DNA from: an uncultured Candidatus Saccharibacteria bacterium
Lineage (GTDB): Bacteria > Patescibacteriota > Minisyncoccia > Phycocordibacterales > UBA5272
Assembly: GCA_964457775.1 (NCBI GenBank)
Contig: CAYWEW010000003.1
Location: 30,776-94,775, forward strand
DNA length: 64,000 nt
Direction of reading: 5' to 3'
Of the stretch, positions 8,647 through 63,718 are shown piece after piece. The notes beneath the pieces are model-generated. The model made no database searches. It worked only from the letters and a program-made list of their open reading frames with translations, and had not been told where the DNA came from. How positions within the stretch are numbered: position 1 is the first letter of the stretch; each line of letters begins with the position of its first letter. The position numbers were made by a program, and so were the translations under genes.

Positions 8647-9396
8647 ATGACAGAAAAGGTATATTTATACGGACGAAATCCTCTAAAGGAGGCAATTCTT
8701 GCGAGTAAACGTAACGGTTCTTCAGTTATCGAGAAACTTTTTTTGACCAAGCAAGCAGAAGATGAACCGAAAGTGATGAGTCTAATTCAAAGTAATAATC
8801 TAACTTATGATGTTGTTACATATCAAGAAATAGAAAGTATGGTTGGTCGTGGTGTTGTGCATCAGGGTGTTTGTGCATTACTTGATGAAAGTACTCTTTA
8901 TACATCACTCGAAGAAGTGATTGCAAAGTCTAAAGCAAATGAAAGGAACTCACTTTTTGTATTATTAGATAAACTTCAAGACCCGCATAATGTTGGGGCG
9001 ATTATTCGTTCTGCTGTTGCTTTCGGGGCTGATGCAATATTGCTTCCTGAAAATGATCAGGTTCTTATAAATGGCACAGTTATCAAAACATCTTCAGGGA
9101 TGACATTCGCACTTCCGATTGTAAAAATTGGTAATGTGAACACTACTCTTACAAAATTAAAAGATAACGGATTTTGGACGTATGGATTAACTGGAGAAGG
9201 AGATACAAAATTACACAAAGCAAAATTTGATACTAATACTGTAATTGTTGTTGGTGGTGAGGGTGAAGGTATAAAAACAAAGACTCTTGAGTTGTGTGAT
9301 TTTAAATTGTCTATTGAAACGAATTCATTATGTGAATCGTTGAATGCGTCAAATGCTAGTGCTGTTGTGTTATACGAATGGCGTAAGCAAAATTAA
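8647..9396 (+). CDS. rlmB: 23S rRNA (guanosine-2'-O)-methyltransferase RlmB / SpoU-TrmH family
   Basis: SpoU motifs DKLQDPHNVGAIIRSAVAFG, IVVGGEGEGI, NASNASAVVLYE. Confidence 0.8.
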   Translation: MTEKVYLYGRNPLKEAILASKRNGSSVIEKLFLTKQAEDEPKVMSLIQSNNLTYDVVTYQEIESMVGRGVVHQGVCALLDESTLYTSLEEVIAKSKANERNSLFVLLDKLQDPHNVGAIIRSAVAFGADAILLPENDQVLINGTVIKTSSGMTFALPIVKIGNVNTTLTKLKDNGFWTYGLTGEGDTKLHKAKFDTNTVIVVGGEGEGIKTKTLELCDFKLSIETNSLCESLNASNASAVVLYEWRKQN

Positions 9397-18080: not shown

Positions 18081-19538
18081 ATGGCCTCCATCGAAGAACT
18101 TCGCACAGAAAGAATTAAAAAATTAGAGAAATTAAAAGCTCTTGGAATTTCTTCATATCCGAGTTCATCTTCTCGTACTCATGAATTAAAATATGTGGCG
18201 GATAATTTTACTTCACTTGAAAGTCATCAAGATTCAATTATTGTAAATGGCCGTGTTATGTCATCACGTGGACAAGGAGCTATTTGTTTCGTTGATTTGT
18301 ATGACGGAACAAATAGAATGCAAGTTGTTATTAAGTTACCAGAATCAACTGAAGAAGTGATGAATTTTTATCGTGACTACGTAGATATAGGAGACTTTGT
18401 AGAAGTAACTGGAAAAGTTTTTATTACAAAATCAGGTCAGCAAAGTATTCTTGTTAATAAAGTTTCCATGCTATCAAAAGCATTACTTCCACTTCCAGAT
18501 AAATTCCACGGACTTCAGGATGAAGAACTTCGTATGCGTGAAAGATATCTAGATATACTTACGAATCCTGAACTTAGGGAGTTATTAGAAAAGAAGACAA
18601 AATTTTGGGAGGTGACACGCTCATTCTTAAAAGAAAAGGGGTTCTTAGAAGTTGAAACACCAACTCTTGAAGTAACTACAGGAGGTGCAGAGGCTAGACC
18701 ATTTGCTACACATCATTATGATTTTGATTTGCCAGTATTTATGCGTATATCAGTTGGAGAACTTTGGCAGAAGAGATTAATGGCCTCTGGTATCCCGAAG
18801 ACTTTTGAAATAGGCCGTGTATATCGTAATGAAGGTTCATCGCCAGATCATCTCCAGGAATTCACTAACTGTGAATTTTATATGTCATATGCAAATTATG
18901 AAGATGGAATGAAGTTAACTCAAGAACTATATCGCAAATTAGCAGAAGATGTATTCGGTACGACAACATTTACAACACGTGGACACACATTTAATCTTGC
19001 TGATGAATGGACTAAAATTGACTATAGTGAAGAAATAAAACGTCAGACATCTATTGATATAAATACTGCAACCGATGATGAAATAAAAAACAAATTACAA
19101 GATTTGAAAGTGAAGTATGACGGTGTTAATCGTGAGCGATTAATTGATACACTTTGGAAGTATTGTCGTAAGAATATTACTGGTCCATCTTTTGTAATTA
19201 ATCATCCAATAATTATTGCTCCACTTGCAAAGAAGAATACTGATGGTAAAACTGTACAAATGTTCCAACCAGTTATCGCAGGAAGTGAAATTGGACGTGG
19301 CTACTCAGAACTTAATGACCCACTTGATCAAAGAGAGAGATTCGAAGTACAGCAGAAGTTATTAGCTGGAGGGGACGAAGAGGCGATGATGGCAGATTGG
19401 GAATTTGTGGATATGTTAGAACATGGTATGCCCCCTACATGTGGATTTGGTTTTGGCGAAAGATTGTTCGCATTTTTGGCAGATAAACCAGTTCGTGAAG
19501 TACAGACATTCCCACTTACAAGACCAAAAATAATTTAG
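18081..19538 (+). CDS. lysS: lysyl-tRNA synthetase, class II
   Basis: OB anticodon-binding domain plus class II motifs 1-3 (FxEVETP, RNEG, GxGxGxER). Confidence 0.95.
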   Translation: MASIEELRTERIKKLEKLKALGISSYPSSSSRTHELKYVADNFTSLESHQDSIIVNGRVMSSRGQGAICFVDLYDGTNRMQVVIKLPESTEEVMNFYRDYVDIGDFVEVTGKVFITKSGQQSILVNKVSMLSKALLPLPDKFHGLQDEELRMRERYLDILTNPELRELLEKKTKFWEVTRSFLKEKGFLEVETPTLEVTTGGAEARPFATHHYDFDLPVFMRISVGELWQKRLMASGIPKTFEIGRVYRNEGSSPDHLQEFTNCEFYMSYANYEDGMKLTQELYRKLAEDVFGTTTFTTRGHTFNLADEWTKIDYSEEIKRQTSIDINTATDDEIKNKLQDLKVKYDGVNRERLIDTLWKYCRKNITGPSFVINHPIIIAPLAKKNTDGKTVQMFQPVIAGSEIGRGYSELNDPLDQRERFEVQQKLLAGGDEEAMMADWEFVDMLEHGMPPTCGFGFGERLFAFLADKPVREVQTFPLTRPKII

Positions 19539-30501: not shown

Positions 30502-32391
30502 ATGTCTATAACAGTAAATGAAATCCGTTCAAAGTTTTTGAAATATATGGAAGAGAGAGGACATGTTGTTGTACCCTCATCTTCTCTTGTTCCAGAAAAT
30601 GACCCCACTACACTTTTCACTGGTAGTGGTATGCAACCAATGGTTCCTTATCTTTTAGGACAACCACATCCACTAGGAAAGAGAATTGCAGATAGTCAAA
30701 AATCTTTTCGTTCTCAAGACATAGACGAGGTAGGAGATAATCGTCACACTACATTTTTTGAAATGCTTGGTAATTGGTCTTTTGGTGATTATTTTAAAGA
30801 AGATGAAATTAAATGGATGTTTGATTTTTTGATAAATGAACTTAACCTTAATCCGAACAAACTGTATATAACTTGTTTTAAAGGAAATGATTCTTTGGGT
30901 ATTCCTCGCGATACATTTTCAGCAGAGCTTTGGCAAAAGCTTTTTGAGGAAAAAAATGTTGAGGCCAATATAAGCGATACACCAGAAGAAGGTATGAAGC
31001 AGAGTGAGAGAATATTTTATTACACAGAGAAAAAGAATTGGTGGTCAAGAATGGGAGTACCTGCGAATATGGGAGAAGGTGAACCAGGTGGACCAGACTC
31101 AGAAATGTTTTATGATTTTGATATAAGAGAAGAAAAGGGAATTCATGCTAATTCTAAGTTCGCTAATGAACCATGTCATCCGAATTGTGATTGTGGTAGA
31201 TTTTTGGAAATTGGAAACAATGTGTTCATGCAGTACAAGAAGGCTGCGGGTGGATTCGAAGAATTACCACAAATGAATGTTGATCATGGTTCTGGTCTTG
31301 AGAGATATGCTTGTGCGCTTCGTGATGATTCGGATATTTTTAATATAGATGTATTCAATAATCCAAAGGATTATATTCAATTATTATCTGGCAAAAAATA
31401 TGGTGAGAGTGATGAAATAACGTATGCGTATCGAGTTATACTCGATCATCTTCGTGCCGCAACATTTTTGATCGGGGATGATATATTACCTGGGAATAAA
31501 GACCAAATGTACTTCGTACGCAGACTTATTCGTCGCTCAGTAAGATTCGCTCGTAACTTAGGAATCAATAATAATTTTACAAAAGAAGTAGCTCTTTCAT
31601 TTATTGAAGTTTATAGAGATGAGTATAAAAATCTTGATGAAAAGAAAGAAATAATTTTGAATGAATTGGAGAAGGAGGAAGTTAAGTTTAGAAAAACTCT
31701 TGAACACGGAATTAAACAATTTGAAAAAATCGCAAAAGGAGATATAAGTGGAGTAGATGCCTTTGACCTACTTCAAACATACGGTTTCCCAATTGAATTA
31801 ACAGAAGAATTAGCAAAAGAAAAAGGAATTAATATTGATATTAATGAATTTGAAAAGTTGAAAGCAGAGCATTCAGAATCGTCTCGTACAGCAAGTGCAG
31901 GAAAGTTCAAGGGCGGTCTTGGGGGTGATGGAGAAATGGAAATAAAGTATCACACTGCAACCCACATGCTTCATCAGGCACTTCGTACTGTACTTGGTGA
32001 TACGGTAGTACAAAAGGGTTCTAATATAACACCTGAGCGTTTACGTTTCGATTTTGCTTATGGAGAAAAGATGACCGATGAACAAAAGAAACAAGTTGAA
32101 GATTTGATTAATTCAAAAACAAAAGAAAATCTTCCTGTTATTCGTGAAGATATTTCAATAGATGAAGCAAAGTCTCGTGGAGCAATGGGATTGTTCACTG
32201 ATAAATATGGTGACAAAGTAAGTATTTATAGAATAGGTGAAGGAAAGAATAAAGGAGATGATAATTTATTTTCAATTGAAATGTGTGGTGGTCCACATAT
32301 ATCAAACACAAGTGAGTTAGGTGTATTCAAAATAACAAAAGAGGAAGCAGTGTCTGCAGGTGTTCGTCGTATTAAGGCTACCTTATCATAA
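30502..32391 (+). CDS. alaS: alanyl-tRNA synthetase, short form (catalytic + editing domains, no C-Ala domain)
   Basis: AlaRS N-terminal motifs (FTGSGMQP, WSFGDYFK), editing HxxxH (HTATHMLHQAL) and CGGPH motifs; 629 aa; -10 TATAAT at 30490. Confidence 0.85.
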   Translation: MSITVNEIRSKFLKYMEERGHVVVPSSSLVPENDPTTLFTGSGMQPMVPYLLGQPHPLGKRIADSQKSFRSQDIDEVGDNRHTTFFEMLGNWSFGDYFKEDEIKWMFDFLINELNLNPNKLYITCFKGNDSLGIPRDTFSAELWQKLFEEKNVEANISDTPEEGMKQSERIFYYTEKKNWWSRMGVPANMGEGEPGGPDSEMFYDFDIREEKGIHANSKFANEPCHPNCDCGRFLEIGNNVFMQYKKAAGGFEELPQMNVDHGSGLERYACALRDDSDIFNIDVFNNPKDYIQLLSGKKYGESDEITYAYRVILDHLRAATFLIGDDILPGNKDQMYFVRRLIRRSVRFARNLGINNNFTKEVALSFIEVYRDEYKNLDEKKEIILNELEKEEVKFRKTLEHGIKQFEKIAKGDISGVDAFDLLQTYGFPIELTEELAKEKGINIDINEFEKLKAEHSESSRTASAGKFKGGLGGDGEMEIKYHTATHMLHQALRTVLGDTVVQKGSNITPERLRFDFAYGEKMTDEQKKQVEDLINSKTKENLPVIREDISIDEAKSRGAMGLFTDKYGDKVSIYRIGEGKNKGDDNLFSIEMCGGPHISNTSELGVFKITKEEAVSAGVRRIKATLS

Positions 32392-51599: not shown

Positions 51600-52580
51600 A
51601 TGTCAAAGAAAATCTTAGTTTCTGGAATCAAACCAACAGGGAGACTTCATTTTGGGAATTACTTTGGTGCAATGAAGCAGAATATTGACCTATCAAATTC
51701 TGGAGAATATGAGAGTTATGTTTTTATTGCTGATTATCACGCTCTCACAACTGTCCGAAATGGTGATGAGTTGCGACAGCAGACTATAGAAGCCGTTGCT
51801 TCATACATTGCTTGTGGACTGGATGTTTCAAAAGTTGTTTTGTTCAAGCAGTCATCTGTTCCTCAAGTTACTGAACTAACTTGGATTTTTAATAACCTCG
51901 TAACTATACCGTACATGATGAGAGCTCATGCATTCAAGGATAGAGAGGCAAAAAACGAAGAAGTTAATTTAGGTCTTTTTGATTATCCAGTACTTATGGC
52001 TTCTGACATTTTAATTTACGGTGCTGATATTGTTCCAGTAGGGGCTGATCAAAAGCAACATGTAGAATATGCTCGTGATATCGCTGGATATTATAATCGT
52101 GCGTATAATGTTGAAGAATTTAAATTACCGAAAGATTTGATAATTGAAAATGTTGCCTCACTCCCTGGTGTAGATGGCCAAAAGATGAGTAAGGGGTATA
52201 ACAATCACATTGAACTATTTTGTTCTGATGAAGATTTAAAAAAACGAGTGATGAGTATTGTCACTGATAGTGCGAGTCCAGAAGACAAGAAGAATCCAGA
52301 TGAAAATAATATTTATAAAATTCATAAACTTTTCTTGAATGAAGAAGAGGATAAAAATTTGCGTGAAAAGTTTGAAAATGGTGGATATGGATACAAGCAA
52401 GCAAAGGATGATTTGCTTGTTACTATTATGAAGTGGAGAGAGGGAAAGAAAGAGAAGTACGATGAACTACTATCGGACACATCTTTTATACTTAATCTCT
52501 TAAAAGAAAATGGTGAATCTGCGAGAATTAAAGCAGAAGAAAAAATGATTATAGTTCGTAAGCAGATTGGATTGGAATAA
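51600..52580 (+). CDS. trpS: tryptophanyl-tRNA synthetase
   Basis: HIGH-region TGRLHFGNY, KMSKG. Confidence 0.92.
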   Translation: MSKKILVSGIKPTGRLHFGNYFGAMKQNIDLSNSGEYESYVFIADYHALTTVRNGDELRQQTIEAVASYIACGLDVSKVVLFKQSSVPQVTELTWIFNNLVTIPYMMRAHAFKDREAKNEEVNLGLFDYPVLMASDILIYGADIVPVGADQKQHVEYARDIAGYYNRAYNVEEFKLPKDLIIENVASLPGVDGQKMSKGYNNHIELFCSDEDLKKRVMSIVTDSASPEDKKNPDENNIYKIHKLFLNEEEDKNLREKFENGGYGYKQAKDDLLVTIMKWREGKKEKYDELLSDTSFILNLLKENGESARIKAEEKMIIVRKQIGLE

Positions 52581-52809: not shown

Positions 52810-52853
52810 CCGCTGTCTATCCCAGGCCTTGCTTAGATAGATAAATTTATATT

Positions 52854-52881
52854 TTGATTTTTCACTAAAATTTGTTAGAAT
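52854..52881 (+). promoter_or_regulatory. promoter TTGATT-N16-(TG)nTAGAAT
   Basis: Good -35/-10 with extended TG. Confidence 0.5.
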
Positions 52882-52887
52882 TTTTGC

Positions 52888-53155
52888 ATCCAGTCACTGA
52901 TGTTTAGTGTCTCTCCGTTAAGGATTCAGTCGTGGAAGGGCTGTTTAGATACCGGTTAAGGAATACATGCTCTGATGACAACAACTTCCATGAATTAGGA
53001 AAAGTGTTGTCTCGTGGTAAAATCCACAAAAGTCGCTCCACCGAGAAGTGTTGTACGGGTTCAAAGAGTTATATCAGTTTCGCGATTCGGAAAGATTCAC
53101 AACCTCGCGCCGAATACATCCCCGCAAACAAAACATCAGTTTGCGGGGATTTTTA
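52888..53155 (+). ncRNA. candidate ~270-nt structured RNA of unknown class ending in an intrinsic terminator
   Basis: Promoter upstream; ccccgcaaac-N9-gtttgcgggg + T5 at 53120-53154; no plausible ORF; repeated ccg(g)ttaagga motifs. Confidence 0.35.
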
Positions 53156-53159
53156 TTTC

Positions 53160-53187
53160 TTGCATGCTTATACATATGTGATAGTAT
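53160..53187 (+). promoter_or_regulatory. promoter TTGCAT-N16-TGaTAGTAT for the aspS leader
   Basis: Starts directly after the preceding terminator. Confidence 0.5.
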
Positions 53188-53193
53188 AAATAT

Positions 53194-53353
53194 AAGCATT
53201 GATGAAGCTGACAACTTCGGAGCAAAGGTTAAATTTAATAAATAAGAGTGGCTACAATAAGTAGCAAGGTATGGTGGCACCACGGTTCTCCGCAATCGTC
53301 CGTACACAAATATACACTAGTTGTATATTTTGTTTACGGACTATTTTATTTTT
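53194..53353 (+). promoter_or_regulatory. T-box riboswitch leader (Asp specifier GAC in a short stem-I hairpin) controlling aspS
   Basis: T-box core AAGGUAUGGUGGCACCACGG at 53266-53285 (cf. AAUUAGGGUGGNACCGCGG). Terminator hairpin gtccgtacacaaatatac / gtatattttgtttacggac 53299-53341 plus U-run abuts the ATG. GAAG-CUGACAA-CUUC hairpin at 53204-53218 puts GAC+A in a 7-nt loop. Confidence 0.5.
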
Positions 53354-54763
53354 ATGACAAGAACTTATATCAAAGACATTTCTCAAAATATTGGAAGTGA
53401 AGTAACAGTTAAAGGTTGGGTTGATGTTAGACGTGACCAAGGGAAAATGGTTTTCCTAGATTTACGTGATGTTACAGGCAAAGTACAAGCTGTAGTACTT
53501 CCTAACCATGTAGAGGCACTAGAAGTCGCACAAAAGGTCCGTCCAGAATGGGTGCTCGCAGTTACAGCACAGGTTAATAAGCGCCCAGAGAAGAATATAA
53601 AGGTAGGTGTTGTAGGGGGTGATGTGGAACTTGAAGTTTTGGCAATTGAAGTTTTGAATGAAGCTACTACACCCGCTTTTGATATTTCTACGGACGGATA
53701 TGAAGTTGGTGAGGAGGTACGTCTTGAATATAAGTATCTTGATCAACGTCGTGCTCGCATTTTACATAATATAAAAATGCGCCACAAGGTAGTGAAATAC
53801 ATTCGTGACTATTTCGATGCGAATAATTTCTTTGAAGTAGAAACACCATTACTCACTAATCCAACACCAGAAGGCTCACGTAGTTATTTGGTCCCATCAA
53901 GAGTACATACTGGTAGTTTCTATGCTCTTCCACAATCTCCACAACAGTATAAGCAGTTGTTAATGGCGGGAGGATTTGAAAGATATTTCCAAATAGCCAA
54001 GTGTATGCGAGATGAAGATACTCGTGGTGATAGACAACCAGAGTTCACTCAATTAGATATTGAAATGAGTTTCGTTACTCAAGAAGAAGTGATGAAAACA
54101 AATGAAGAATTGTTAATTAAATTAGTCACTGACTTATTCCCAGATAAAATAATTCAAACTATACCATTCCCAGTATTAACCTATAAGGAAGTAATGGAAA
54201 AGTATGGAACAGATAAGCCGGACCTAAGAGAAAACAAAGAAGACAAGAATCTTTTGGCTTTTTGTTGGGTAATTGATTTTCCAGCATTTGAAAAAACAGG
54301 AGAAGATAACGTGGACGGAACAGGTGAGTGGACTTTTACCCACAACCCATTTACAGGAGTAAAGAAAGAATTCACCGCTGATTTAATTGAAAAGAAAAAT
54401 ATTGGAAGTATTATTTCTACTCAATATGACGTTGCTATGAATGGATATGAATTAGGTGGTGGAGGTATACGTCTTCATAAAGCAGAGGAGCTTAGAAAAG
54501 TTTTTGAAATTATGGGGTATAGTGATGAAAGAATTGAAAGTAATTTCGGTCATATGTTAAAAGCTCTCGCATCAGGTACGCCACCACATGGAGGAATTGC
54601 ATGGGGATTAGACAGGCTACTAATGATACTTCTTAATGAACAAAATATTCGTGAAGTAATGGCATTTCCAAAGACAGGTGAAGGGCGAGATATACTCATG
54701 CAAGCACCAAGTCCTGCACCAGATAAGACACTTAGAGAATTAAAAATCTCAATTACAAAATAA
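53354..54763 (+). CDS. aspS: aspartyl-tRNA synthetase, short (GAD-less, archaeal/ND-type) form
   Basis: OB domain plus class II motifs (FYALPQSPQQYKQLLM, GGGIRLHK); 469 aa. Start at MTRTYIKD (ORF-track 53321 overlaps the terminator). Confidence 0.9.
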   Translation: MTRTYIKDISQNIGSEVTVKGWVDVRRDQGKMVFLDLRDVTGKVQAVVLPNHVEALEVAQKVRPEWVLAVTAQVNKRPEKNIKVGVVGGDVELEVLAIEVLNEATTPAFDISTDGYEVGEEVRLEYKYLDQRRARILHNIKMRHKVVKYIRDYFDANNFFEVETPLLTNPTPEGSRSYLVPSRVHTGSFYALPQSPQQYKQLLMAGGFERYFQIAKCMRDEDTRGDRQPEFTQLDIEMSFVTQEEVMKTNEELLIKLVTDLFPDKIIQTIPFPVLTYKEVMEKYGTDKPDLRENKEDKNLLAFCWVIDFPAFEKTGEDNVDGTGEWTFTHNPFTGVKKEFTADLIEKKNIGSIISTQYDVAMNGYELGGGGIRLHKAEELRKVFEIMGYSDERIESNFGHMLKALASGTPPHGGIAWGLDRLLMILLNEQNIREVMAFPKTGEGRDILMQAPSPAPDKTLRELKISITK

Positions 54764-62147: not shown

Positions 62148-62398
62148 AAGAGTTTCTCCTTAAAATTTAATGAGCAGGCAACTCTTCTATTATCACATAT
62201 TTATAGCACAATGTCAATAGTGATAAAAGTCTTGAACATATAGAATATTAATTAGAATGTAGTATGTTGCCATTTTGGACATATCTAAATATTATTAATT
62301 TTAAACATAATATATGATATTTATATTTAAATATACTTATCAATAATTTTCTAATTGCTAATGGCAACAAGCTGTTCACGATGATATACTATGTAAAT

Positions 62399-63718
62399 AT
62401 GGTTACATCAAAAATAGTTACACGTTTTGCTCCTAGCCCAACAGGTCTTCTTCATATGGGTAATTATCGTACCGCTGTTTTTGCATACTTATATGCTCGT
62501 AAAAATGGAGGTAAATTTATTCTTCGTATAGAAGATACTGACCGCGAACGTAGCAAAAAGGAATATGAGGATAATATAATAGAAAGTCTAGAATGGTTGG
62601 GTCTTAATTATGACGAAAAGTATCGCCAAAGTGAACACGTAGAATCTCACACAAGACATCTGCAAAAATTGATTGATGACGGTCATGCATATATATCCAA
62701 AGAAGAGGCAAAAGATGGAAGTGGGGTGATGAGAGAATTGGTAAGATTTAAGAATAAAGGGGAAGTGGTAGTTTTTGAAGATGCAATACGTGGACGAATA
62801 GAAACTGATACAACAGACTTAGGTGATTTTGTTATTGCAAAGTCAATTACAGAACCACTTTTTCATATTGCTGTTGTTGTTGATGACCACGAAGAAGGGG
62901 TGACACATATACTTCGAGGAGAAGACCATATTCCGAACACTCCACGTCAAATTCTAATCAGAGAAGCGTTAGGATTTCCTCAGCCAGTGTATGCGCATCT
63001 ACCATTAGTATTATCAGAAGATAGAACTAAGCTCTCAAAGAGAAAAGGAGCTCTTCCTGTAACCGCGTATCGTGACATGGGATATTTGCCTTCAGCAATT
63101 ATAAACTTCATGACTTTCATTGGATTTAATCCAGGAGGAGAAAAGGAGATTTTTACACTTGATGAATTAGTTGAAGTTTTTGATTTGGTAAAAATACACA
63201 AAGGAGGAGCAATTTTCAATAAAGAAAAACTTTCATGGATGAATAAAGAACATATAAGATTACAGTCAGTTGAGACGCAATATAATACTGTGAAAATTTA
63301 TATGGAGAAATATCCAGAAGATATTTTGAAGAGACTATTACCAGCAGTTATAGATAGAATTTCTACTTACGGTGAATTAAATGAAATTAAGAATTTGGAG
63401 TTCGGGTTTTTTATAAATACACCTGTTTATAATGTTGAGAAAATTACTTGGAAAGATGCTGGAAAAATTGAAGCTTCACAACACTTAAAATCAGTAAAGG
63501 AATTATTAACTAAAGCAGATTTCACATCACCTGAGACTATCAAGCAATCAATTATAGGTTATGCAGAAGAAAAAGGTAAAGGTAATGTTCTTTGGCCACT
63601 TCGTATGACTTTATCTGGTCAAGAAAAGTCAGTAGATCCATTTACAATTTGTTATGTATTAGGAATTGATGAAGTTATTAAACGTATAGATTCAGTATGT
63701 CAATTGCTTGATGCATAA
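62399..63718 (+). CDS. gltX: glutamyl-tRNA synthetase (short form)
   Basis: RFAPSPTGLLHMGN (HIGH), KLSKR; start at MVTSKIVTRF (ORF-track 62381). Confidence 0.9.
   Translation: MVTSKIVTRFAPSPTGLLHMGNYRTAVFAYLYARKNGGKFILRIEDTDRERSKKEYEDNIIESLEWLGLNYDEKYRQSEHVESHTRHLQKLIDDGHAYISKEEAKDGSGVMRELVRFKNKGEVVVFEDAIRGRIETDTTDLGDFVIAKSITEPLFHIAVVVDDHEEGVTHILRGEDHIPNTPRQILIREALGFPQPVYAHLPLVLSEDRTKLSKRKGALPVTAYRDMGYLPSAIINFMTFIGFNPGGEKEIFTLDELVEVFDLVKIHKGGAIFNKEKLSWMNKEHIRLQSVETQYNTVKIYMEKYPEDILKRLLPAVIDRISTYGELNEIKNLEFGFFINTPVYNVEKITWKDAGKIEASQHLKSVKELLTKADFTSPETIKQSIIGYAEEKGKGNVLWPLRMTLSGQEKSVDPFTICYVLGIDEVIKRIDSVCQLLDA

Follow-up and report, generated by a model that had tools for sequence, protein, structure and literature searches.

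The aspartyl-tRNA synthetase (AspRS) gene aspS of a patescibacterial genome is preceded by a short leader, which raises the question of whether so small an RNA could sense a tRNA and, if so, with which contacts. The gene lies on a 64-kb stretch of contig CAYWEW010000003.1, called the window below; positions are given in window coordinates unless a locus identifier (L followed by a number) precedes them. A preliminary description, made from the letters of the DNA, had proposed a T-box riboswitch with an ultrashort Stem I and with the specifier in its terminal loop, located 5' of aspS. This proposal is upheld by the Rfam model (E = 5.1e-9), by an independent model built from relatives (E = 1.4e-7) and by covariation. 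The region 53195-53353 (+) is probably a functional but reduced T-box riboswitch, specific for tRNA-Asp and controlling aspS, which would touch the tRNA only at the anticodon and at the acceptor end, with a flexible linker between the two sites.

Identification of a T-box element upstream of aspS

When a region of 641 nt was searched with the Rfam T-box model RF00230 and reporting by E-value, the full length of the model (positions 1-219) aligned to 53190-53306 with 46.3 bits. The base of Stem I, Stem III, the T-box sequence and the antiterminator were all matched, and about 74 model positions, belonging to distal Stem I and to the Stem II/IIA-B region, were deleted. Because of these deletions the score is only half of the RF00230 gathering score of 93 bits, and when the whole window was searched at gathering thresholds, no match to any Rfam family was obtained.

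We also used two custom covariance models, R1 and R2, the latter built from related leaders only, with the window's own clade excluded. Searched against the whole window, R2 matched 53194-53304 from end to end with 37.1 bits, and its next best match had 13.2 bits. R1 recognised a single element with 70.5 bits; with the filters off, nothing else in the window scored above 13.9 bits. As a covariance-model hit the proposed T-box thus falls short of the Rfam gathering score, but it stands on a full-length alignment with a low E-value and on both custom models. In addition, the window holds a single copy of the 12-nt core GGTGGNACCRCG, and when up to two mismatches were allowed, the core motif was met elsewhere in the window only as chance matches in coding regions.

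Anatomy of the leader

A putative promoter is located at 53160-53187 (+), with the -35 element TTGCAT (53160-65) and the extended -10 element TGaTAGTAT (53179-87). The pattern TGnTAGTAT is kept in all six window-clade leaders of alignment A1, and from its position transcription would start at about 53194-53195. The promoter was not reported by a generic promoter scan because its -35 element is weak.

The Stem I module (53195-53224, +) was aligned by RF00230 to the base of Stem I. It begins with a predicted kink-turn (K-turn, GA motif), in which a C-stem (G53196-C53223 and C53197-G53222) is followed by the 3-nt bulge AUU (53198-200) and by tandem sheared G.A pairs (G53201.A53221 and A53202.G53220); this assignment rests on the invariance of UGA and GAG, on the length of the bulge and on the covariation of the C-stem. 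A wobble pair, U53203.G53219, leads to a helix of 4 bp, GAAG/CUUC (53204-07 with 53215-18), and the helix is closed by a loop of 7 nt, CUGACAA (53208-14), which offers the specifier GAC (Asp) at 53210-12 and then the conserved purine A53213. The hairpin GAAG-CUGACAA-CUUC at 53204-53218, with GAC followed by A, is therefore present as originally read.

Two large parts of a T-box are absent from the element. The distal platform of a long Stem I, consisting of the AG bulge and the distal loop, is missing from the RF00230 alignment, and Stem II with its S-turn and Stem IIA/B are missing both from this alignment and from the minimum free energy (MFE) fold of the aptamer. Stem I is followed by an A/U-rich linker of 22 nt (53224-53245), which is unpaired in the aptamer MFE fold and lies in the region deleted in the RF00230 alignment. 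In the relatives L032, L072, L073, L068 and L076 its place is taken by a Stem II-like helix with an AAGAAA/AGUAGAA internal loop. The discriminator then starts with the purine string GAGUG (53246-50, +) and continues with Stem III, GCUAC/GUAGC (53251-65, +), whose pairing covaries in L095 (GCCAC/GUGGC), and with the flanking AA (53266-67, +). In this way 53246-53267, GAGUG-GCUAC/GUAGC-AA, displays the purine-string motif 5'-RRRxG...AA-3' around Stem III as defined in PMC7583486.

Positions 53266-53285 read AAGGUAUGGUGGCACCACGG, which agrees with the near-consensus T-box sequence and UGGN bulge noticed at first. Between the T-box consensus AGGGUGGNACCGCG and 53271-53284 (AUGGUGGCACCACG), 12 of 14 positions agree, and both mismatches are neutral for pairing (U.G in helix A1, A-U in helix A2). 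The antiterminator is composed of helix A1 (53271-74 with 53300-03), the 7-nt T-box bulge UGGCACC (53275-81), helix A2 (53282-86 with 53295-99) and a loop (53287-94); the UGGC of the bulge is complementary to a tRNA end GCCA. The aptamer as a whole (53194-53304) is 111 nt long.

The terminator hairpin (53298-53341, +) re-employs the 3' strands of the antiterminator in its 5' arm (53298-53304), and it is followed by the U-rich tail UAUUUUAUUUUU (53342-53353, +), with the ATG of aspS directly next at 53354. The preliminary description had called this a long perfect hairpin with a U tract that ends at the start codon; the length, the U-rich tail and the place of the ATG were as described, but the 18 pairs of the hairpin are broken by two single-base interruptions. 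The antiterminator with the UGGC bulge forms, as had been expected, and is mutually exclusive with the more stable terminator, six bases (53298-53303) being common to both; the computed energies are -3.5 kcal/mol for the antiterminator and -19.2 kcal/mol for the terminator. A weak antiterminator that needs the tRNA in order to win is the usual design of a T-box.

Covariation and the specifier

Homologous elements stand before AspRS genes in 40 other loci. After removal of duplicates there were 37 distinct leaders with an ultrashort Stem I, the window and 36 others; 28 of them (the window and 27 others) lack Stem II and nine carry it. In the gap-free alignment A2 of 28 Stem I modules, 83.6% of the cells were paired as against 57.5% after shuffling, and the covariation score was 0.719 against 0.26. 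None of 500 shuffles scored as high, and slid registers gave values of 0.08-0.12. Double changes were frequent in the three central pairs of Stem I and in the pairs of the C-stem. Pairing of the antiterminator helices A1 and A2 was 100% in the 28 leaders, and compensatory changes were seen there, among them AUGG/CCGU, AGGG/CCCU, CGGG/CCCG and AAGG/CCUU.

The 28 leaders share the invariant bases U9 G10 A11 and G29 A30 G31, which are the UGA and GAG of the K-turn, and in alignment A2 the same is true of A20 C21 A22, that is, of specifier positions 2 and 3 and the following A. The T-box core is likewise among the invariant bases of the related leaders. Judging from these alignments, the invariant bases are those that matter in a T-box.

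In 15 leaders that were found without any constraint on the specifier, the same loop triplet was GAC in seven cases and AAC in eight, and nothing else occurred. Within the window clade, GAC is present in the window, L037 and L095, and AAC in L002, L004, L005 and L019. Because the change from Asp to Asn hits exactly this triplet before orthologous AspRS genes, the loop triplet can be taken as the specifier. The bulge is equally constant, being UGGC in 36 of the 37 distinct leaders. Beside the related T-boxes only one gene for tRNA-Asp or tRNA-Asn was found, a tRNA-Asp gene in L062, from a related Paceibacterota genome. Its anticodon GUC (loop CUGUCAC) and its discriminator base G73 fit GAC and UGGC, respectively. 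The expected complementarity of anticodon and specifier is thus seen with this related tRNA-Asp, but the tRNA end facing UGGC is GCCA and not ACCA, as had been assumed.

The regulated gene aspS (53354-54763, +) encodes a bacterial-type AspRS of 469 aa, which had been labelled as non-discriminating. The protein scored 596 bits against NCBIfam NF001750 (cutoff 443), and as the 590-position model was matched in two stretches, it lacks the GAD insertion. Against NF003483, the archaeal-type 'aspartate--tRNA(Asn) ligase', it reached 220 bits and remained below the cutoff of 353, so that the label did not hold at the family level. The AAC specifiers of the four close orthologous leaders nevertheless suggest that a short AspRS of the window type may also charge tRNA-Asn. 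In Clostridium acetobutylicum, an Asn codon reportedly serves as specifier for an AspRS whose product enters the tRNA-dependent Asn pathway.

Distribution and stepwise reduction in relatives

Among 80 orthologous aspS loci in metagenome-assembled genomes (MAGs) of Paceibacterota/Nomurabacteria, a motif search confirmed by R1 placed a T-box directly 5' of aspS in 14; R1 detected no T-box at any other place in the 80 loci. Metagenomes were scanned with a pattern of short Stem I, RAC, short linker and T-box core; RAC was required, so other amino acids were outside its reach. The scan gave 34 loci, 26 of which are real (R1 scores of 44.9-86.3 bits). The expectation that the element would recur in orthologous leaders is thus supported by the 14 aspS leaders and the 26 metagenome loci, with covariation. 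The remaining eight matches (L082, L085, L090, L094, L096, L102, L111 and L114) were rejected as chance matches in G+C-rich coding DNA, with no R1 match and no AspRS nearby. A GGGGTGGTACT motif 5' of aspS in L040 is within coding sequence and is not a T-box.

Wherever the sequence reaches the downstream gene, all 26 metagenome leaders precede an AspRS gene; L081 (1,308 nt) stops after the first downstream codons, and these match the conserved AspRS N-terminus of its group. Three types of AspRS are found behind the metagenome leaders, namely a short bacterial one like that of the window, a full-length one of 590 aa and an archaeal-type non-discriminating enzyme (L097 and L108). Against RF00230 the ultrashort leaders score 31-47 bits, compared with the gathering score of 93, and for this reason they are missed by routine annotation.

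The two leaders before archaeal-type AspRS genes, for which NF003483 scored above its cutoff, are minimal T-boxes with AAC (L097:1439-1532, -) and GAC (L108:4725-4826, -), and this type of leader is therefore common to three AspRS lineages.

The relatives can be arranged by the domains that they retain, with the presence of Stem II and its S-turn assigned by eye from the sequence pattern and the covariation of the stem. The most complete leaders (grade A: L032, L072, L073, L068, L076 and L074) combine an ultrashort Stem I with a Stem II-like helix, a IIA/B-like segment and Stem III; the stem of the Stem II-like helix covaries around a conserved AAGAAA/AGUAGAA internal loop. Three leaders (L024, L086 and L092) have Stem II only. 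In grade B, which comprises the window clade and L113, Stem II is absent and Stem III is kept, and in grade C (L027, L031, L089, L091, L097, L098, L108 and L110) both are absent and the purine string is kept. The Stem III-less leaders of patescibacterial type are L027:615-706, L031:2845-2928, L091:1468-1551, L089, L098 and L110. Their purine string AAAGAG...AAAGU is directly followed by helix A1, the terminator and U tract are intact, and the aptamers measure 84-97 nt, with 84 nt in L031 and L091. The specifier loop has 7 nt (YYRACAA/C) in 27 of the 28 Stem II-less leaders, the module of L113 being 1 nt shorter and parsing as an 8-nt loop, and it has 6 nt in six of the nine Stem II-bearing ones, a comparison of raw counts that ignores shared ancestry.

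In a rough neighbour-joining tree of AspRS, drawn without support values, T-box-bearing genes are scattered among T-box-less ones, and Stem II-less leaders stand beside Stem II-bearing ones in at least three places, which argues that the reduced form is viable. This picture fits an ancestral T-box followed by repeated loss of domains and repeated complete loss.

A group of 13 metagenome loci, many of them from rumen (L081, L083, L084, L087, L088, L099, L101, L103-L107 and L109; e.g. L084:3426-3600), carries leaders with an ultrashort Stem I and with neither Stem II nor Stem III before the full-length 590-aa AspRS. There is no U tract in these leaders, and pairing is possible between the CCCC of helix A1 and an AGGGG/AGGGA sequence resembling a Shine-Dalgarno (SD) sequence; the expression platform of the group thus appears to be translational. 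Members of the AspRS cluster of this group are labelled 'MAG: Alphaproteobacteria bacterium' at NCBI; to our knowledge, T-boxes are not expected in Alphaproteobacteria. We also noticed tRNA genes immediately 5' of several leaders, tRNA-Met in L068:2710-2784 and, in the rumen group, tRNA-Thr(GGU) in L083:2206-2279 and L087:1607-1680. Such leaders may be co-transcribed with the tRNA gene or closely follow it.

Proposed mechanism and alternative explanations

Transcription would begin near 53195 from the extended -10 promoter, and the nascent RNA would fold into the K-turn and the 4-bp hairpin, the 7-nt loop of which could offer GAC to the GUC anticodon of tRNA-Asp. The flexible linker of about 22 nt would then allow the discriminator (GAGUG-Stem III-AA together with helices A1 and A2) to contact the acceptor end of the same tRNA. 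If the tRNA is uncharged, its end G73-C-C-A would pair with the UGGC bulge and stabilise the weak antiterminator, so that RNA polymerase would read through into aspS. With a charged tRNA, or with none, A1 and A2 would lose their 3' strands to the far stabler terminator (53298-53341 plus the U tract), and the transcript would stop before the ATG.

Several points weigh against this interpretation. Single-sequence MFE folding failed to recover the T-box architecture, and the z-score of the aptamer was +0.44; since such folding was uninformative, we relied on comparative evidence. There is no tRNA gene within the window. A's break up the U tract, and in the relative L002 this tract is poor (UUAACUUUAUG). 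The element is missing from 66 of the 80 orthologous leaders, including that of the closest relative, L001, and is therefore dispensable. It has also been reported that a truncated ileS Stem I without Stem II barely binds tRNA and that transcriptional T-boxes need the elbow platform (PMC7583486). For glyQS, the high G+C content of the glycine codon GGC has been put forward as the reason why Stem II can be spared (PMC7583486), but GAC and AAC are less G+C-rich.

Because neither the elbow platform nor the Stem II/IIA-B clamp is present, recognition would rest on just two short duplexes. Possible sources of affinity are a 7-nt loop resembling an anticodon loop, which would pre-stack the codon, extra loop-loop pairs, or a helper protein. 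A doubtful alternative, compatible with the T-box reading given above, is that the riboswitch works but that an additional factor replaces the missing domains, either a protein binding the K-turn or the tRNA, or further loop-loop pairs besides those of the triplet. Useful affinity is held to depend on Stem II or on the elbow platform (PMC7583486), and the bases of the K-turn are invariant. The loop sequence 5'-UGACA-3' could form five pairs with 3'-A37 C36 U35 G34 U33-5' of the L062 tRNA-Asp; the U before the specifier is found in 24 of the 28 leaders of alignment A2. All 28 Stem II-less modules are sized for a 7-nt loop, the size of an anticodon loop, and six of the nine Stem II-bearing ones have 6 nt, although this correlation was counted regardless of shared ancestry. 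No candidate protein was identified, however. Moreover, U33 and A37 of a tRNA are not usually available for pairing, and modification of A37 is common.

As for the expression platform, all patescibacterial (Parcubacteria-type) leaders close with a strong hairpin of varying sequence, which overlaps with the antiterminator and leads into a U-rich run. Transcription attenuation is favoured because the hairpin and the U-run are kept, because SD sequences are too little used to offer a sequestrator anything to hide, and because a hairpin of terminator style lies upstream: an ordinary terminator of this style closes the upstream unit at 53120-53155. We consider it rather unlikely that control is mainly translational, with the hairpin 53298-53341 blocking the access of ribosomes and the antiterminator acting as an anti-sequestrator. 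The short distance between hairpin and start codon in the window clade (9-13 nt), the weak U tract of L002 and the related rumen group of 13 leaders, with no U tract and with CCCC of helix A1 able to pair with AGGGG/AGGGA, would all suit this explanation. There is, however, no SD sequence 5' of aspS that could be sequestered, and an SD-like motif within 22 nt of the start was found in only five of the 45 larger genes of the window, the other 40 having none. The hairpin and U-run are also retained in patescibacterial leaders where 25-30 nt separate the hairpin from the ATG (L027, L031 and L032). An added effect on translation initiation, besides attenuation, is possible, as the hairpin of the window ends only 12 nt 5' of the ATG and the U tract is imperfect.

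It is improbable that the element is a decaying relic of a complete T-box that no longer senses tRNA and is now a constitutive partial terminator or inert. Patescibacterial genomes are reduced, and a relic would be in keeping with the patchy occurrence in orthologous leaders, with the absence from the nearest relative and with the visible series of domain losses, first of Stem II and then of Stem III. Yet the remaining functional elements are intact and covary across clades whose AspRS share 30-80% identity, the specifier continues to read Asp or Asn, UGGC is kept in the bulge, and the overlap of terminator and antiterminator is maintained despite differing terminator sequences. A constitutive terminator of -19 kcal/mol before an essential single-copy gene would also be costly. 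Finally, a chance resemblance to the T-box consensus beside an ordinary terminator, which could appeal only to the Rfam score below the gathering score, is effectively refuted by the E-values of RF00230 and of the independent R2, by the single occurrence of the core in the window and by the covarying homologues before AspRS genes elsewhere.

Comparison with known T-boxes

The preliminary description had likened the leader to the ultrashort T-boxes of actinobacterial ileS, in which both the S-turn of Stem II and the IIA/B pseudoknot are essential and which act translationally through an SD sequestrator (PMC7583486; bioRxiv 10.1101/2023.02.28.530422). All T-boxes of the ultrashort class have been said to regulate ileS and to respond to tRNA-Ile (bioRxiv 10.1101/2023.02.28.530422, a 2023 preprint). 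The likeness holds for the short Stem I. As in the ileS elements of Mycobacterium and Nocardia, Stem I consists of a K-turn and a few bp, and its terminal loop holds the specifier with a conserved purine after it; there is no elbow platform, and the discriminator has Stem III and a UGGN bulge. If the predicted start at 53195 is taken as nt 1, the specifier C and the purine fall at nt 18 and nt 19, in agreement with C18 and A19 of N. farcinica (PMC7583486). The likeness does not extend to Stem II and IIA/B, which are absent from the window element, nor to the SD sequestrator, in place of which there is a terminator-like hairpin with a U tract; the specifier is that of Asp and the host belongs to Patescibacteria.

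With the glyQS glycine T-boxes of Bacillus, the element shares the absence of Stem II/IIA-B, the order of Stem I, single-stranded linker, Stem III, antiterminator and terminator, and a platform of the transcription attenuation type. In contrast, the Stem I of glyQS is long, with a distal platform for stacking on the tRNA elbow, and the specifier is GGC, whereas the window element has a 4-bp Stem I and GAC (AAC in relatives). Only glycine T-boxes have been described as being without Stem II and IIA/B (PMC11297988, 2024).

The canonical T-boxes of Firmicutes aminoacyl-tRNA synthetase genes (RF00230), among which some are specific for Asp or Asn, have the same T-box sequence, 7-nt bulge, competing terminator, K-turn and specifier matching the synthetase. 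The window element is about 100 nt shorter and lacks the S-turn-bearing internal loop of the specifier, the AG bulge, the distal loop, Stem II and IIA/B. The sister leaders of Patescibacteria listed above as grade A also precede aspS and share the ultrashort Stem I, GAC or AAC, UGGC and the terminator platform; unlike the window they keep a Stem II-like helix and a IIA/B-like segment, while the reduction goes beyond that of the window in L027, L031, L089, L091 and others, where Stem III is missing too.

Full-text searches of the literature, in which T-box was combined with Candidate Phyla Radiation, Patescibacteria or Parcubacteria, yielded no paper, and the combination of an ultrashort Stem I with the absence of Stem II, together with a terminator and Asp/Asn specificity in Patescibacteria, was not found described. 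The chances seem evenly divided that these leaders (aptamers of 111 nt for the window element and 84 nt for L031 and L091) are the smallest natural T-boxes and would sense tRNA during transcription by two short duplexes, a kissing of loop and anticodon and the pairing of UGGC with GCCA, with no elbow platform or Stem II clamp.

T-boxes serve as a model for the recognition of a whole tRNA by another RNA, and in the view derived from structural work three contacts are needed, with the anticodon, with the elbow or through a Stem II clamp, and with the acceptor end. If the proposal were true, the elbow platform and the Stem II clamp would be accessories, and two rules would fall, namely the need of transcriptional T-boxes for a long Stem I and that of a truncated Stem I for Stem II. 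A conserved family with covariation, in which anticodon and acceptor end are the only contacts left and a terminator seems to be the platform, would provide a minimal scaffold for testing the contributions of domains, and a minimal T-box would be a compact part for synthetic tRNA sensors. The family would also represent a natural series of stepwise domain loss in Patescibacteria, and possibly in gut Alphaproteobacteria MAGs. The switching between GAC and AAC would mean that the same AspRS is tuned to the supply of either tRNA-Asp or tRNA-Asn, a regulatory clue that the short AspRS may serve tRNA-Asn too. Standard annotation misses such T-boxes, also in a large candidate phylum for which we found no published T-box.

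Surroundings of the element

The window contains four other aminoacyl-tRNA synthetase genes, lysS (18081-19538), alaS (30502-32391), trpS (51600-52580) and gltX (62381-63718). Further T-boxes before these genes were rejected, both the core-motif scan and R1 being empty there, and the regions 5' of alaS and gltX showed small minus-strand open reading frames (ORFs) and nothing notable.

In the relatives L003, L006 and L007 the upstream gene runs almost directly into aspS, with no leader between them. This gene is probably trpS, as it ends like the upstream gene of L002 and occupies the position of trpS in the window.

Between trpS, with an overlapping ORF of 80 aa, and the promoter of the T-box there are about 270 nt (52854-53156, +) with no convincing ORF. 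They include a promoter-like TTGATT-16-TAGAAT (52854-52881) and end with the strong terminator at 53120-53155, which was missed, together with the terminator of the leader, by a simple terminator scan because of its loop or bulge limits. The fold of 52854-53156 has -75.3 kcal/mol (z = -2.15) with no Rfam match, and blastn of 52810-53160 against 114 fetched loci gave no similarity. It may represent either a small RNA of unknown kind or a gene in decay.

The window is of the Paceibacterota/Nomurabacteria kind, with a G+C content of about 35% and with its 80 aspS orthologues in such MAGs. Many of its genes have a -10-like box (TATAAT, TAGTAT or TAGAAT) only 5-12 nt 5' of the ATG, for example at 8647, 13451, 26432, 30502 and 47521. 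Together with the rarity of SD-like motifs, this suggests that SD-independent, leaderless mRNAs or mRNAs with very short leaders may be the norm in this organism.

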